Notes under the pieces: model-generated | The model's database searches: none | The model's input: the letters and a program-made list of their open reading frames with translations, nothing else | What the model was told of the DNA's origin: nothing | Translations under genes and position numbers: made by a program | DNA from: Candidatus Dormiibacterota bacterium | Lineage (GTDB): Bacteria; Chloroflexota; Dormibacteria; DASZGP01 | Direction: 5' to 3' | Length of the DNA: 64,000 nucleotides | Assembly: GCA_036741395.1 (NCBI GenBank) | Contig: DAINSI010000001.1 | Span: 14,999 to 78,998 of the forward strand | Shown: positions 37,701 to 42,928 of the stretch, piece after piece | Layout of the letters: every line of letters begins with the position of its first letter | How positions within the stretch are numbered: the first letter of the stretch is position 1

Positions 37701-38534
37701 TCAGGTCGGCGGGGGTTCGGGCTTGGGGTGGCTGGGGGCGCGGGCCGGCTCGGGGGCGCCCGCGCTCCCCGCCTCGCGGCTGGCACGCCGGCGCAACCCC
37801 AGGAGGGCATCGATGATGTCCACGGGGAGCGGGAAGATGATCGTGGTGTTCTTCTCGACGCCGATCTCGGTCAGGGTCTGGAGATACCGCAGCTGGAGCG
37901 CGGCGGGCTCGCGCCCGATGACCTCGGCGGCCTCCATCAGCTGCTGGGAGGCCTCGAACTCGCCCCGGGCGTGGATGATCTTGGCCCGCTTCTCGCGCTC
38001 GGACTCGGCCTCCTTGGCCATCGCCCGCTGCATCGTCTGGGGCAGCTCGACGTCCTTGACCTCGACGGTGGTGACCTTCACCCCCCATGGTTCGGTGTGC
38101 TCGTCGATGATCAGCTGGAGGCGGCGGTTGACCTCCTCGCGCCCCGCCAGCAACTCGTCCAGGGTCGACTCGCCCAGGACCGACCGCAGCGTGGTCTGGG
38201 CGATCTGGGATGTCGCGTTGACGTAGTTCAGGACCTGGGTCACCGCCTTGCCGGGGTCGACGATCTTGAAGTAGATGACCGCGATGACCTTGATCGTCAC
38301 GTTGTCCCGGGTGATGACCTCCTTGGGGGGAACCTCGAGGGTGACGGTGCGGAGGTCGATCTTGACCAGGCGGTCGACGCCGAGTGGGATGATCAGGACG
38401 AAGCCCGGGCCCTTGATCGGCATCAGCCGGCCCAGCCGGAAGACGACGCCGCGCTCGTACTCCTGCAGGATCCGCACGGACATGAAGAAGAGGACGGCGA
38501 CAACGACCAGGACAATCCCGAGAGCAAGGAACAC
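37701..38534 (-). CDS. SPFH/Band 7 (stomatin/slipin-like) protein
   Basis: 277-aa ORF with an N-terminal TM helix, a [11 protein letters not shown] start to the SPFH domain, and a coiled coil [19 protein letters not shown]. Confidence 0.9.
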
Positions 38535-38659: not shown

Positions 38660-40012
38660 TCAGGCCGGCTCAACTTCCAGTCGAAGACCGTCGATTGAGC
38701 TGACCCTGACGCGCGATCCGCGCGCGATCGCGACGGCCGTGCTCGCCTGCCATAGGGCGCCATCGACCATCACCAGTCCTCCCTCCGGCCCGAGGTCCTC
38801 CTTGGCCTCGCCCTCGATCCCCACCATCGACGCCGGGCCCAGGCGGAGCGGCCGGCTGCGGGCGATCACCGCGCGGGAGATCAGGAACGCCAGGATCAGG
38901 CCGACCGCGATCGGCGGGAGCACCGCCAGCCAGAGGTTGGGTTCGAGGAAGGGCGCGCCGGCATCGAGGATCAGGAAGGAGCCCAGCGCCAGCGAGAGCA
39001 CGCCGCCGCCCGTCAGAACCCCGTGGCTGGGCGAGTGGACGTCGACCGCGAAGAGGACCAGCGCAAAGGCCACCAGGGCGACCCCCGCGAGGCTGACCGG
39101 CAGGCTCTCGAAGGCCACCAGCGCCAGCGCCCCGGCGATCACCCCGACCACACCGGGCAGGATCGCCCCCGGGTGGGTGATCTCAAACCCTATCGCCAGG
39201 ATCGCCAGCAGGAAGAACAGATACGCCACCTGGGGGTCGGCGAGCGCGTGCAGCAGGCTCTGGGTGTAGCCCATCTGCTGCTGGTCGACGAGCGCGCCGC
39301 CCGAGTGAATGGTGATGGTGGTGCCGTTCTTGCTCAACTGCTGGCCCTCCACGTCCCGCAGCAGCGCCGGCAGGTCCGGCGCGAGGCGGTCGGCGACGTG
39401 CAGCTCGACCGCTTTCTCGGCGGTGACATTGGCGCTGTTCTTGACCGCGTCGGTGGCCCAGTCGGGGTTGCGGTGGTGGAGGTTGGCCAGGCCCTGGATG
39501 TAGGCGACGGAGTCATTGAGCACCTTCTGGTCCTCGACGTTGGACCCGCTCCCCCCGGCCGACCCGCCGGCGCCGATGAACACCGGGTGCGCGGAGCCGA
39601 TGTTGGTCCCAGGCGCCATCGCCACGATGTCCGCGGCCTGGCTGATGTAGAGCCCCGCACTGGCCGCGCGGGCCCCCGACGGCCCCACGTAGACCGCCAC
39701 CGGGATCGGACTGGCGAGCATCGCCCGGATGATCTTGCGCATCGACGAGTCGACCCCGCCGGGGGTGTCCATGCCGATCACCACGAGGTCGGCGCCGCTG
39801 GACCTGGCGGTGTCGAGGCCATTGACGATGTAGTCGGCGGTGAAGACGTTGATCACACCGTCGATGCGCAGCATGGTGACCTTCGGCTGGGCGGCCCGAG
39901 CGCCGCTGGACAGGAGCAGCAGGAGGGCGGCAGCGCAGAGCAGGACGGCGCCCGCGCCAGGGGCCGAGAAGCGCCCGCGTGCCCGGGCCGCCGACATGGC
40001 CATAAGTGGCAT
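38660..40012 (-). CDS. NfeD-family membrane-bound ClpP-class serine protease
   Basis: 450-aa ORF with a signal/TM segment, a ClpP-like domain (IDGVINVFTADYI, GARAASAGLYISQAADIVAMAPGTNIGSAHP), a multi-TM region and a C-terminal OB-like NfeD domain. It lies upstream of the SPFH gene, the classic pairing. Confidence 0.85.
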   Translation of the reverse strand: MPLMAMSAARARGRFSAPGAGAVLLCAAALLLLLSSGARAAQPKVTMLRIDGVINVFTADYIVNGLDTARSSGADLVVIGMDTPGGVDSSMRKIIRAMLASPIPVAVYVGPSGARAASAGLYISQAADIVAMAPGTNIGSAHPVFIGAGGSAGGSGSNVEDQKVLNDSVAYIQGLANLHHRNPDWATDAVKNSANVTAEKAVELHVADRLAPDLPALLRDVEGQQLSKNGTTITIHSGGALVDQQQMGYTQSLLHALADPQVAYLFFLLAILAIGFEITHPGAILPGVVGVIAGALALVAFESLPVSLAGVALVAFALVLFAVDVHSPSHGVLTGGGVLSLALGSFLILDAGAPFLEPNLWLAVLPPIAVGLILAFLISRAVIARSRPLRLGPASMVGIEGEAKEDLGPEGGLVMVDGALWQASTAVAIARGSRVRVSSIDGLRLEVEPA

Positions 40013-40056
40013 GTTACGCGGCCGGGAGGGCGCAGCCCGTACCTATCATTCAAGAC

Positions 40057-40707
40057 GTGTCGCAGGAACGTGCCCATCAGGAGCGGGAACGGCAGCTCGA
40101 GGCTGAGCTACGCGGCCAGGCCGACGCCTACAAGCGACTCAGCCCTGACGAGGAACGTGAGCTCCTCGGTCGGCGCCCCGACGCCGGGACCACAGCGACG
40201 CTGGTGGAGCACAACCTCGACCTCGTCGTCATCCAGGCGGAGTCCCACCGCGGACGCGGCCTGCCCTTCTCGGACCTCTACCAGGAGGGCACGGTGGGAC
40301 TCGTCGATGCCATCGGCGCGTACACCGGCCGGGGCGATTTCCGCGACTTCGCCAGCCTCCACATCGGCCTCCAGATTGACTCCCTGATCCAGGCTGAGGC
40401 AGAGGACCGCAAGGAGGCCGAGGTCGACATTCTCGACCTCAAGACCCTGGAAACGGCCCAGGTCATGTTCCGGCGGGGCAACCGCCGCGAGGCCACGCCG
40501 GAGGAGATGCTGAAGCTGCTGGGCTGGGAGGAGACGCGCCTCGAGCGCATCGAACGGATGCTGGACCTGGCCCGCGAGCACAACGACGCCGCCACCATCA
40601 GCTTCCTCGACGACTCGGACGCCGAGGACCTGGGAATCGACTTCGTCGAGGCGGACGAGGCGCCGGACCCCCGACGCCGCCCCACCGGCGCCGGCCCCGA
40701 TGACTGA
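40057..40707 (+). CDS. Sigma-70-like protein with regions 1.2-3.2 only (no region 4)
   Basis: The track ORF starts at 40006, overlapping the divergent NfeD start, so the GTG at 40057 is preferred (TATCAT at 40044-40049). LVEHNLDLVVIQAESHRGRGLPFSDLYQEGTVGLVDAIGAY matches region 2.1-2.2. ATPEEMLKLLGWEETRLERIERM and DAEDLGIDFVEADEAPD match region 3.0-3.2. The ORF stops where region 4 should begin. Confidence 0.6.
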   Translation: MSQERAHQERERQLEAELRGQADAYKRLSPDEERELLGRRPDAGTTATLVEHNLDLVVIQAESHRGRGLPFSDLYQEGTVGLVDAIGAYTGRGDFRDFASLHIGLQIDSLIQAEAEDRKEAEVDILDLKTLETAQVMFRRGNRREATPEEMLKLLGWEETRLERIERMLDLAREHNDAATISFLDDSDAEDLGIDFVEADEAPDPRRRPTGAGPDD

Positions 40708-40731: not shown

Positions 40732-41451
40732 ATGAACCTCGAAGATCTCCTCGCCACCAGGCCGCTGTTCCACGTCCACGAGAACCAGCCGCATTCGTGG
40801 CAGCTCTCCACCGACGTGCTCAAATTCATCGACGCCGAGGTATTGCCGGGGCTGCGTACGATCGAGACGGGCGAGGGGTACAGCACAGTCCTGTTCGCGC
40901 TGAAGCGGTGCCACCACACCTGCGTCACGATCAACGCGCCGGGGGTGGAGCGGATCCGGGAGTTCTGCGCTGAGCACGCGATATCCCTGGACACCGTGAC
41001 CTTCGATACCCGCCCTTCGCAGGTGGCCCTGCCTGGCCGGGAGATGGGCACCCTGGACGTCGTCCTGATCGACGGCGGTCATGGATTCCCGACGCCGATG
41101 GTCGACTGGTTCTACATGGTTCCTGCACTGCGGGTCGGGGGGATCGTCGTCGTCGACGACACTCAGATCTGGACCGGCAAGGTGCTCCGGGACTTCATGG
41201 CGGCGGACTCCGCCTGGGGGCTGGTATTCGAGCATCCCGGTCGGACGGCGGTGTTCCGCAAGCTCGCCATCGTCGACGTCGCAGCCGAGTTCTATGCCCA
41301 ACCGTACGTGATGCAGCACACCAGGCAGAATGACCGCTGGCGCCGGCGTGCCCGGGTGACCGGCCAGCTGATCCGGGCCGGTCATTGGGACGCACTGGCG
41401 GGCAAGGCAATTGGTTATGGCGCGCGCGCGGTGCGCCGGCTTGTTGGCTGA
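40732..41451 (+). CDS. Class I SAM-dependent methyltransferase (Methyltransf_24-like)
   Basis: 239-aa ORF with IETGEGYSTVLFAL and VVLIDGGHGFPTPMVDWFY. Confidence 0.65.
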   Translation: MNLEDLLATRPLFHVHENQPHSWQLSTDVLKFIDAEVLPGLRTIETGEGYSTVLFALKRCHHTCVTINAPGVERIREFCAEHAISLDTVTFDTRPSQVALPGREMGTLDVVLIDGGHGFPTPMVDWFYMVPALRVGGIVVVDDTQIWTGKVLRDFMAADSAWGLVFEHPGRTAVFRKLAIVDVAAEFYAQPYVMQHTRQNDRWRRRARVTGQLIRAGHWDALAGKAIGYGARAVRRLVG

Positions 41452-42550
41452 TCCCGAGTTGGCCGAGACCCTGAGGACATCGCTCTACGATCGCCACCTG
41501 GCGGCGGGTGCGCAGATGGTCGAGTTCGGCGGCTGGAGCATGCCGCTGCAGTACTCGTCGATGCGCGAAGAGCACCAGGCCGTGCGCCAGGCCGCGGGGC
41601 TGTTTGACGTGTCCCACATGGGTGAATTCCACATGCAGGGACCGCGGGCGGAGGCCACGCTGGAGCGAATCGTCACCAACCGCGTCGGCGACCTGGTTGA
41701 CGGCCAGGCGCGCTACAACCTGCTCTGCAATGAGGCGGGGGGAATTGTCGATGACACCCTCGTCTACCGCCTTGCGCCGGAGCGCTACATGGTCGTGGTC
41801 AACGCCGGGCCTCGTGAGCATGACCTTGCCCACATCGTCGCGGTGGCCGGCGACCAACCGGTCGACGACGCCACCACGACGACCGCCCTGCTGGCGGTGC
41901 AGGGACCGCGCGCGATCGAGATCCTGCGGCCGCTTACCAACCTCGCCCTGGATGACATCGGCTATTACCACCACGCCGAGGGGCGCCTGGGGGACATCGA
42001 GGGACGGTTCAGCCGCACCGGGTACACCGGGGAGGATGGGTTTGAGATCTTCATGCCCTGGGACGCAGCCCCCACGGCCTGGGACCTGATCCTCGAGGCC
42101 GGCGCACCTGCCGCCCTCCGTCCGTGCGGCCTCGGCGCCCGCGACACTCTGCGGCTGGAGGCCTCGATGCGGCTCTCCGGCCAGGACATCGGCGAATCGA
42201 CCAACCCCTTGGAGGCGGGGCTGGGGTGGGCGGTCAAGCTCGACAAGGGCGACTTCATCGGCCGGGAGGCGATCCAGCGGATCAAGAATGACGGCCCGGC
42301 GCGCGCCTACATCGGGCTGGCGCTGGAGGGCAGGGCGATCGCGCGTCACGGCTACCGGGTCAACGACGGCGGGCGCGACGTGGGCGAGGTAACCTCGGGG
42401 ACGTTTTCATTTACTCTCGGCAGGGCGGTGGCGACCGGCTATGTCGAGCGGGGGTCGGCCGACTCGGCGGCACTCTCCGTGGAAGTTCGTGGGCAGGCGG
42501 TCGCCGCGCGGCGGGAGCCGATGCCCTTCTACAAACGTCAGAGGAGCTGA
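41411..42550 (+). CDS. gcvT: Glycine cleavage system aminomethyltransferase T
   Basis: SLYDRHLAAGAQMVEFGGWSMPLQY, FDVSHMGEF and TGYTGEDGFEI. An alternative TTG start at 41459 (MAETLRTSLYD) would remove the 41-nt overlap with the upstream gene. Confidence 0.92.
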   Translation: MVMARARCAGLLADPELAETLRTSLYDRHLAAGAQMVEFGGWSMPLQYSSMREEHQAVRQAAGLFDVSHMGEFHMQGPRAEATLERIVTNRVGDLVDGQARYNLLCNEAGGIVDDTLVYRLAPERYMVVVNAGPREHDLAHIVAVAGDQPVDDATTTTALLAVQGPRAIEILRPLTNLALDDIGYYHHAEGRLGDIEGRFSRTGYTGEDGFEIFMPWDAAPTAWDLILEAGAPAALRPCGLGARDTLRLEASMRLSGQDIGESTNPLEAGLGWAVKLDKGDFIGREAIQRIKNDGPARAYIGLALEGRAIARHGYRVNDGGRDVGEVTSGTFSFTLGRAVATGYVERGSADSAALSVEVRGQAVAARREPMPFYKRQRS

Positions 42551-42928
42551 ATGGACCTATCCAAACACTGCTTCAGCAAGAGCCACGAGTGGGTCGTCGT
42601 GGACGGCGAAACAGCTCGGATCGGCATCACCGATTACGCCCAGGCCCAGCTCGGCGACGTCATCTACGTGGAGCTGCCCAAGCCGGGTACCGAGATCACC
42701 GCCGGTGGCAAGTTCGGCGTCATCGAATCGGTGAAGGCGGCCTCCGACCTCTATTCACCGGTGAGCGGGCGGGTGAAAGCGGCCAACGACGCCCTGACGC
42801 AGACCCCCGAAGCCGTCAACAGCGACCCCTACGCCGGCGGCTGGATGCTTCAGCTGGAGCTGACCGGGCCCCCGTCGGACGAGTTGCTCGACGAGGCGGG
42901 CTACAAAGCCTTCACCGAGGGACTCTGA
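42551..42928 (+). CDS. gcvH: Glycine cleavage system protein H
   Basis: 125-aa ORF with HEWVVVDGETARIGITDYAQ and the lipoyl-lysine motif ESVKAASD. Confidence 0.95.
   Translation: MDLSKHCFSKSHEWVVVDGETARIGITDYAQAQLGDVIYVELPKPGTEITAGGKFGVIESVKAASDLYSPVSGRVKAANDALTQTPEAVNSDPYAGGWMLQLELTGPPSDELLDEAGYKAFTEGL

Follow-up and report, generated by a model that had tools for sequence, protein, structure and literature searches.

A sigma-70 offshoot of Dormibacteria with predicted core-binding determinants and without promoter-reading modules

The 64,000-nucleotide stretch of Candidatus Dormiibacterota bacterium DNA analyzed here (the window; contig DAINSI010000001.1, positions 14,999 to 78,998) encodes, at 40057..40707 of the forward strand, a short protein that resembles sigma-70 factors. 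It is the product of a sigma-derived gene under selection, which retains the predicted determinants of binding to core RNA polymerase (RNAP) and has lost both modules with which sigma factors read promoters. The gene is a clade-specific offshoot of the primary-like sigma-70 family, composed of regions 1.2, 2 and 3 and an acidic tail. Because it is conserved across the class Dormibacteria, we regard its product as probably an undescribed polymerase-binding regulator and not a broken gene.

Domain architecture of the sigma-like protein

An earlier note, made from the letters of the window, had aligned the protein by eye with sigma regions 2.1-2.2 and 3.0-3.2. Profile searches bear out the sigma homology: Pfam Sigma70_r2 (PF04542) matches residues 66-116 of the 233-amino-acid (aa) open reading frame (ORF) at 28.5 bits (cut-off 24), in the region of the first alignment, and the NCBIfam models rpoS and RpoD_Cterm align with residues 49-223 over model positions 31-204 of 285 and 3-157 of 238, respectively. 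The NCBIfam alignments span region 1.2 through region 3.2 and nothing further, and the equivalog scores are far under their cut-offs (TIGR02393, 43.5 bits versus 354; TIGR02394, 44.4 bits versus 378.7). The best sequence match in the PDB is Thermus SigA (residues 164-341 of 423, E = 8e-10). A Sigma3 domain is supported by the rpoS and RpoD_Cterm models and by PDB SigA chains, all of which align through region 3.1-3.2; the second alignment made by eye thus stands with its extent corrected to 3.1-3.2. The Pfam r3 model (PF04539) is not reported for the window protein, though it is recorded for several orthologs.

Primary and primary-like sigmas (groups 1 and 2: SigA/RpoD and RpoS) are the closest known proteins in both sequence and fold, and the two align over regions 1.2, 2.1, 2.2 and 3.1 and a 3.2-like acidic stretch. 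Compared with them, the sigma-like protein lacks regions 1.1 and 4, its −10 and extended −10 contacts are replaced, and its DNA-facing helix is acidic.

The earlier note had placed the start of the gene at 40006, which gives the 233-aa reading (40006-40707, forward strand). This start is unlikely because the orthologs, read as open frames in 20 related genomes, and the database copy P0001 (216 aa, 100% identical to the window protein) begin at the equivalent of GTG 40057 or at that codon itself, because an ORF beginning at 40006 would overlap the start of the NfeD gene on the opposite strand (40012, minus strand), and because a −10-like hexamer lies 7 nucleotides (nt) before the GTG. The true start is most likely GTG 40057. 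The features of the gene are as follows.

40006..40056, plus strand: in-frame 5′ extension, probably untranslated; it has no ortholog counterpart, overlaps the NfeD start and holds the −10-like box
40044..40049, plus strand: −10-like hexamer TATCAT, 7 nt before GTG 40057, with no −35 match
40057..40707, plus strand: coding sequence of the sigma-like protein (216 aa), beginning with GTG and ending with TGA at 40705-40707 (ORF list, database copy, ortholog starts)
40099..40191, plus strand: region 1.2-like helices, residues 15-45 (alignment to the genome's own SigA, NCBIfam, PDB, structure prediction)
40192..40320, plus strand: regions 2.1-2.2, residues 46-88 (Pfam Sigma70_r2), including D73-L74-Y75-Q76-E77-G78, the motif for contact with the beta-prime clamp helices
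40321..40392, plus strand: degenerate regions 2.3-2.4, FRDFASLHIGLQIDSLI, residues 89-112
40393..40587, plus strand: regions 3.0-3.1, residues 113-177 (alignments A1 and A3)
40588..40704, plus strand: acidic, disordered C-terminal tail, DDSDAEDLGIDFVE, residues 178-216; the protein stops where region 4 would start
40663..40704, plus strand: C-terminal motif PDPRRRPTGAGPDD, specific to the taxonomic family of the window genome

Region 4 is missing from this architecture. Six-frame scans of the whole genome with PF04545 and PF08281 (Sigma70_r4 and r4_2) gave no match in the ORF or downstream of it; the closest PF04545 signal to the gene (E = 0.15) is 4.6 kilobases off on the other strand. A displaced region 4, for which the earlier note had proposed a check of the downstream frames, is ruled out by these scans, which found nothing downstream or nearby, and PF04545 is absent from every family member examined. 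As region 4 is absent, the protein has no means of reading a −35 element and no beta-flap anchor.

Region 2.2 of sigma70 is its main contact to the beta-prime clamp helices. Residues Q406, E407 and N409 serve in core binding, Y430, W433, W434, Q437 and T440 act at the −10 element, and H455 and E458 act at TG. We compared these positions in 52 diverse family members aligned with the genome's own SigA, using E. coli sigma70 numbering. The region 2.2 motif is kept: D403 is found in 39/52 (Glu in the other 13), L404 and Q406 in 51/52 each, E407 in 48/52 and G408 in 44/52. Information content is highest in region 2.2 (2.64 bits), followed by regions 3.1 (2.43), 3.0 (1.97) and 2.3-2.4 (1.92), and the residues invariant across the class (L155, W157, A172 and D177) map to region 3.1 and the 3.1/3.2 junction. 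Judged by alignment, the core-binding residues are retained in region 2.2, where they would face the beta-prime clamp helices, and at the 3.1/3.2 junction.

The residues whose sigma70 equivalents melt and read the −10 and extended −10 elements are lost. FSTYATWWIRQ is replaced by FRDFASLHIGLQ in the window protein, as the earlier note had read it, and neither W433 nor W434 has a Trp equivalent in any of the 52 sequences. R436 is retained in a single sequence, Q437 in four and R441 in three; the T440 equivalent is Asp or Glu in 46/52, His is never found at the H455 position, and E458 is kept in just 10/52. An aromatic residue occupies the Y430 position in 38/52. The net charge of segment 417-463 is +4 in SigA versus a family mean of −4.6, and the mean net charge of the whole protein is −19. 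The −10 and extended −10 contact residues are replaced mostly by acidic or small residues, and the DNA-facing residues differ between Dormibacteria families.

Conservation, C-terminal tail and predicted structure

Among 5.8 billion proteins searched, about 89 relatives (175-234 aa, 48-79% identity) came to light, none of which carries a Pfam region 4. Nearly all named relatives are labeled Candidatus Dormibacteria, with one labeled Chloroflexota and one Candidatus Solibacter. A profile search of 1.84 billion cluster representatives yielded roughly 90 further short clusters (150-260 aa) with an acidic C-terminus and no WW motif, with the lower-ranked matches grading into full-length sigmas. With the broad profile A3, a clear gap separates family members, which score at least 137 bits, from the next matches, which do not exceed 100 bits and are primary sigmas of full length with regions 1.1, 1.2, 2, 3 and 4. 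In a taxonomic sample of 121 Chloroflexota genomes (13 Dormibacteria and 108 of other classes), 12 of the 13 Dormibacteria have a family-level match of 136-234 bits that reaches the end of the model, and the family is apparently absent from one small Dormibacteria genome (G011). It is also absent from all 108 genomes of other classes, where the sole matches (85-103 bits) are full-length sigmas.

The ratio of nonsynonymous to synonymous substitution rates (dN/dS) is 0.21-0.30 within the genus, and the gene is under purifying selection. Full-length orthologs would have made the short form a recent truncation or an assembly error in the eyes of the earlier note. The orthologs, however, are not full length: all those examined end at the same place, after the acidic tail, in the open frames of the 20 related genomes.

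The tail that follows the invariant Asp has a median length of 23 aa and a median charge of −8 (family alignment, n = 52). In the taxonomic family of the window genome, the tail DDSDAEDLGIDFVE is closely similar to EEEDSHLGDFVED, the sigma-finger stretch of SigA from the same genome, and its pattern resembles the "sigma finger" of region 3.2. The end of the tail, PDPRRRPxGAGPDE, is nearly invariant in 61 sequences of this family (with no variation at G211, G213, P214 and D215 and very little at D204, P205 and R207), and the motif PDPRRRPTGAGPDD is maintained across synonymous codon changes. It is absent from the ortholog frames of other Dormibacteria families, which have in common just "AR..HDEE.L.YLD" followed by an acidic run.

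The ortholog at locus L043 (G027:C4) ends in a basic stretch, PRPGTVPVPGRSRRPR, instead of an acidic tail, and SPFH and gcvT at this locus each give split tblastn matches in different frames. These oddities look like indel errors of a 4-contig, probably long-read, assembly.

An AlphaFold2 (AF2) model built on the 61-sequence alignment has a mean predicted local distance difference test (pLDDT) score of 87.8, with confident helices to residue 186 and a disordered tail thereafter (pLDDT is below 65 from residue 181 on). Region 1.2-like helices are predicted at residues 3-23, 30-38 and 43-52, and the three-helix Sigma3 domain is confident. A Foldseek search of the PDB matched only sigmaS and sigmaA chains of holoenzyme and initiation complexes. 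The template modeling (TM) score of about 0.4 is due to residues 95-142 being modeled as one continuous helix; canonical sigmas break between regions 2.4 and 3.0 at "TIRIP".

Gene neighborhood and upstream region

The locus is chromosomal, near parAB and gcv. The genes surrounding the sigma-like gene are listed below.

37701-38534: SPFH gene (synteny), which flanks the sigma-like gene together with NfeD
38660..40012, minus strand: divergent NfeD gene (Pfam NfeD domains, synteny)
40732..41451, plus strand: Methyltransf_24 gene, ATG 40732 (Pfam, 39.5 bits), between the sigma-like gene and gcvT
41441..42550, plus strand: gcvT, start uncertain (ATG 41417, TTG 41441 or TTG 41444), overlapping the 3′ end of the methyltransferase gene (tblastn synteny)
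42551..42928, plus strand: gcvH (ORF list, synteny)

The earlier note had correctly described the gene as divergent from the NfeD-SPFH block and as followed, 24 nt after its stop codon, by a methyltransferase gene. An NfeD-SPFH pair divergent from a sigma-like gene-gcvT-gcvH series is found in 13 of 20 related loci, which represent three Dormibacteria families (f1, f3 and f4). Three more loci retain the gcvT-gcvH side only, so that gcvT adjoins the gene in 16 of the 20, either overlapping it or up to about 70 nt away. In relatives of the same genus the stop codon of the sigma-like gene overlaps the gcvT start (ATGA or GTGA), and in family f3 about 10 nt separate the two genes; in families f2 and f5, the loci examined have no gcvT next to the gene. 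Ancestrally, the sigma-like gene heads a gcvT-gcvH operon for glycine cleavage. Methyltransf_24 is found between the two genes in this genome only (0/20 related loci); it has homologues elsewhere in 3 of 30 relatives, and those in G001 and G006 are about 20 kilobases distant. What is conserved downstream is gcvT, the methyltransferase gene being a one-off insertion, and because this insertion is restricted to one genome a functional link between the sigma-like gene and the methyltransferase gene is rejected. The divergent intergenic region between NfeD and the sigma-like gene is a hot spot of gene insertion; two relatives contain there, as lineage-specific insertions, a 451-aa polytopic membrane protein (L033 7866-9221) and a WbaP-like sugar transferase (L036 8093-8833), respectively.

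A glycine riboswitch (RF00504) is rejected as the cause of the gcvT link, as searches of the window region and of 21 Dormibacteria genomes (G000-G020) found none. The gcvT-gcvH-gcvP operon is present in these genomes all the same.

A consensus scan found neither a full sigma-70 promoter nor a terminator. A TAnnAT box is located 5-7 nt before the start codon in 9 of 12 relatives compared (the genus of the window genome and a second Dormibacteria family, f3). Ahead of the GTG, this box often has TTCn before it and no −35 match (L033, L034, L038-L042, L047, L048). The proximity of the box to the start codon suggests that the mRNA is leaderless and transcribed from a promoter that looks −10-only, and this combination may be a general promoter style of Dormibacteria.

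Possible functions and their meaning

The earlier note had proposed that the protein could dock on core RNAP without being able to read promoters, which would make it a decoy or regulator and not an initiation factor. The nearly invariant region 2.2 motif, the lost −10 and extended −10 residues and the acidic DNA-facing helix, all seen across the class, are consistent with such docking without promoter reading. The reading we favor, and hold tentatively, is that of a non-initiating occupant of the sigma site on core RNAP, which would compete with sigmas or park the core, with its acidic tail in the region 3.2 channel. Probably made from a leaderless mRNA as the product of the first gene of the gcvT-gcvH operon, the protein would dock onto the core at the sigma site, its finger-like tail would enter the active-site and RNA-exit path, and the resulting complex would be unable to recognize or open promoters. 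As an outcome, the protein would compete with SigA and the alternative sigmas, or idle core would be stored.

A narrower form of this idea is possible, and we are more reserved about it: the protein may act as a "hibernation plug", in which regions 2.2 and 3.1 fill the sigma site, the acidic tail is threaded into the active-site and RNA-exit path, and, in Dormibacteria that grow slowly or lie dormant, idle RNAP is kept from contact with DNA and with real sigmas. Such a plug would be a protein equivalent of the 6S and Ms1 RNAs. 6S RNA, the mycobacterial Ms1 RNA and Rsd-type factors remove RNAP or sigma from the initiating pool, typically in non-growing cells. The likeness to them is a functional analogy that extends to the proposed outcome only; those regulators are RNAs or sigma-binding proteins, whereas here a sigma-shaped protein would fill the sigma site on the core.

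No 6S RNA scored above threshold in the 21 Dormibacteria genomes, with a model that detects just 5 of 14 control genomes. A full-length match in one of the genomes (G013:C20:140163-140349, minus strand) reaches 44.2 bits, just under the Rfam threshold of 46.4, so that a divergent 6S RNA is probably present in at least some members of the class.

Several observations weigh against a non-initiating occupant of the core. Region 1.2 and the finger-like region 3.2 are kept, as they would be in an active initiation factor, and T4 gp55 is a sigma without region 4 that can initiate. The 2.3-2.4 helix FRDFASLHIGLQ is almost invariant within the taxonomic family of the window genome, which suggests that this surface binds something specific, a property that a pure decoy would not need. 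The continuous helix at residues 95-142, if real, would give a sigma2-sigma3 geometry unlike that of holoenzyme-bound sigma, or it may reflect over-building by AlphaFold. Finally, global sequestration of RNAP leaves the coupling to gcvT unexplained.

The main rival, which we consider unlikely yet deserving of serious attention, is that the protein is a sigma4-independent initiation factor, whose remodeled 2.3-2.4 helix reads a −10-type element of new specificity, perhaps with another factor. Besides the retained regions 1.2, 2 and 3, the finger-like acidic region 3.2 and the near-invariance of the 2.3-2.4 segment, the aromatic residue kept at Y430 in most of the family is in its favor. There is also precedent: sigma70 can initiate at extended −10 promoters when its region 4 is missing, and T4 gp55, the late sigma that acts with gp33 and the sliding clamp, functions as a minimal sigma. 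The sigma-like protein shares with gp55 its small size (about 200 aa), the sigma2-like core-binding domain and the lack of region 4. However, gp55 reads a defined −10-type motif, whereas the sigma-like protein, which is encoded by cells and conserved throughout a class, no longer has the reading residues. Both Trp residues of the melting dyad are gone, along with R436, Q437, R441 and H455; the −12 contact T440 is mostly acidic and the segment is net negative. Moreover, conservation of the DNA-facing residues does not extend across Dormibacteria families, no cognate motif emerged as a candidate, and the gene's own upstream box is an ordinary-looking TAnnAT. Engineered sigma70 fragments without region 4 are reported to bind core and to affect initial transcription with no recognition of a −35 element (PMC7948647). 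These are laboratory constructs with a −10 reading head, whereas the sigma-like gene is natural and its reading head is lost.

A specific relation to gp55 was not found: PHROGs matched just the generic sigma family phrog_351, and the BFVD matches, too, were to sigmas in general. A phage or defense-system origin is likewise rejected on the results of PADLOC, PHROGs and BFVD, all generic. The sigma MzaA of the anti-phage MZA system matches over the shared region 2 at 30-36 bits versus a cut-off of 800, and the genes of that system are absent nearby.

Less probable again is a role away from RNAP, in which the protein is a sigma-shaped decoy or adaptor (e.g. an anti-sigma or a sigma-binding regulator) or a local regulator of glycine cleavage. 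The position directly upstream of gcvT in 16 of the 20 loci from three Dormibacteria families, the overlap of stop and start codons in the genus, the failure to find a glycine riboswitch in the 21 genomes and the conservation of the exposed 2.3-2.4 surface within the family argue for such a role. Conservation, however, peaks exactly at the beta-prime-binding motif, the gcvT link is missing in families f2 and f5, and operon position by itself is weak evidence.

It is very doubtful that the protein is one half of a split sigma whose region 4 is supplied by a separate protein, as in the SigO-RsoA pair of Bacillus subtilis, even though its architecture ends precisely at the region 3.2/4 boundary. 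Two-subunit sigmas exist, and in SigO-RsoA the sigma functions are spread over polypeptides that are each short of canonical domains (PMC10141391, PMC8103513). The genes of that pair are adjacent, whereas no partner gene was found for the sigma-like gene: none of the 20 related loci has an adjoining ORF with sigma4 only. The sigma set of the genome comprises a normal SigA (C21), a group-3-like sigma (C11) and about a dozen extracytoplasmic function (ECF) sigmas. Its matches to region 4 without region 2 are NarL-type response regulators, one divergent ECF sigma, an ECF fragment at a contig edge and a YlxM-like ORF, which leaves no plausible candidate for a stand-alone sigma4 partner in what is an 84%-complete metagenome-assembled genome of an uncultured lineage, a limit on any claim of genome-wide absence. 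With a partner, moreover, the −10 residues would be missing all the same. The YlxM-like ORF (G000:C33:1865-2263, plus strand) encodes a stand-alone sigma4-like helix-turn-helix protein of at most 133 aa that resembles YlxM/UPF0122, and it is the genome's only orphan ORF of region-4 type besides the response regulators and ECF sigmas.

That the gene is recently truncated, a pseudogene or the result of misassembly has only its short length in favor. This reading is ruled out for practical purposes by the same architecture and end point in about 90 clusters of 190-230 aa, by the recurrence of this end point in independent assemblies, by dN/dS values of 0.2-0.3 and by the absence of a region 4 remnant downstream.

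The literature searched on natural sigmas without region 4 and on Dormibacterota sigma factors yielded no description of this architecture, and Pfam, NCBIfam, PHROGs and PADLOC have no dedicated model for the family. Databases label its members "sigma factor" or "primary sigma factor", and these labels are misleading whether the protein is a decoy or initiates in its own way. The competition of sigmas for limited core RNAP is a central control point in bacteria, and its known modulators are RNAs (6S, Ms1) or sigma-binding proteins. If the occupant reading is true, a natural and anciently conserved core-binding sigma paralog without promoter-reading modules would be a new way to tune this competition; if the protein initiates instead, it would be the first cellular sigma to dispense with region 4 and to use a new −10 reading head. 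A polymerase-parking factor would suit the biology of Dormibacteria, abundant soil bacteria that are uncultured and thought to persist in a dormant state.

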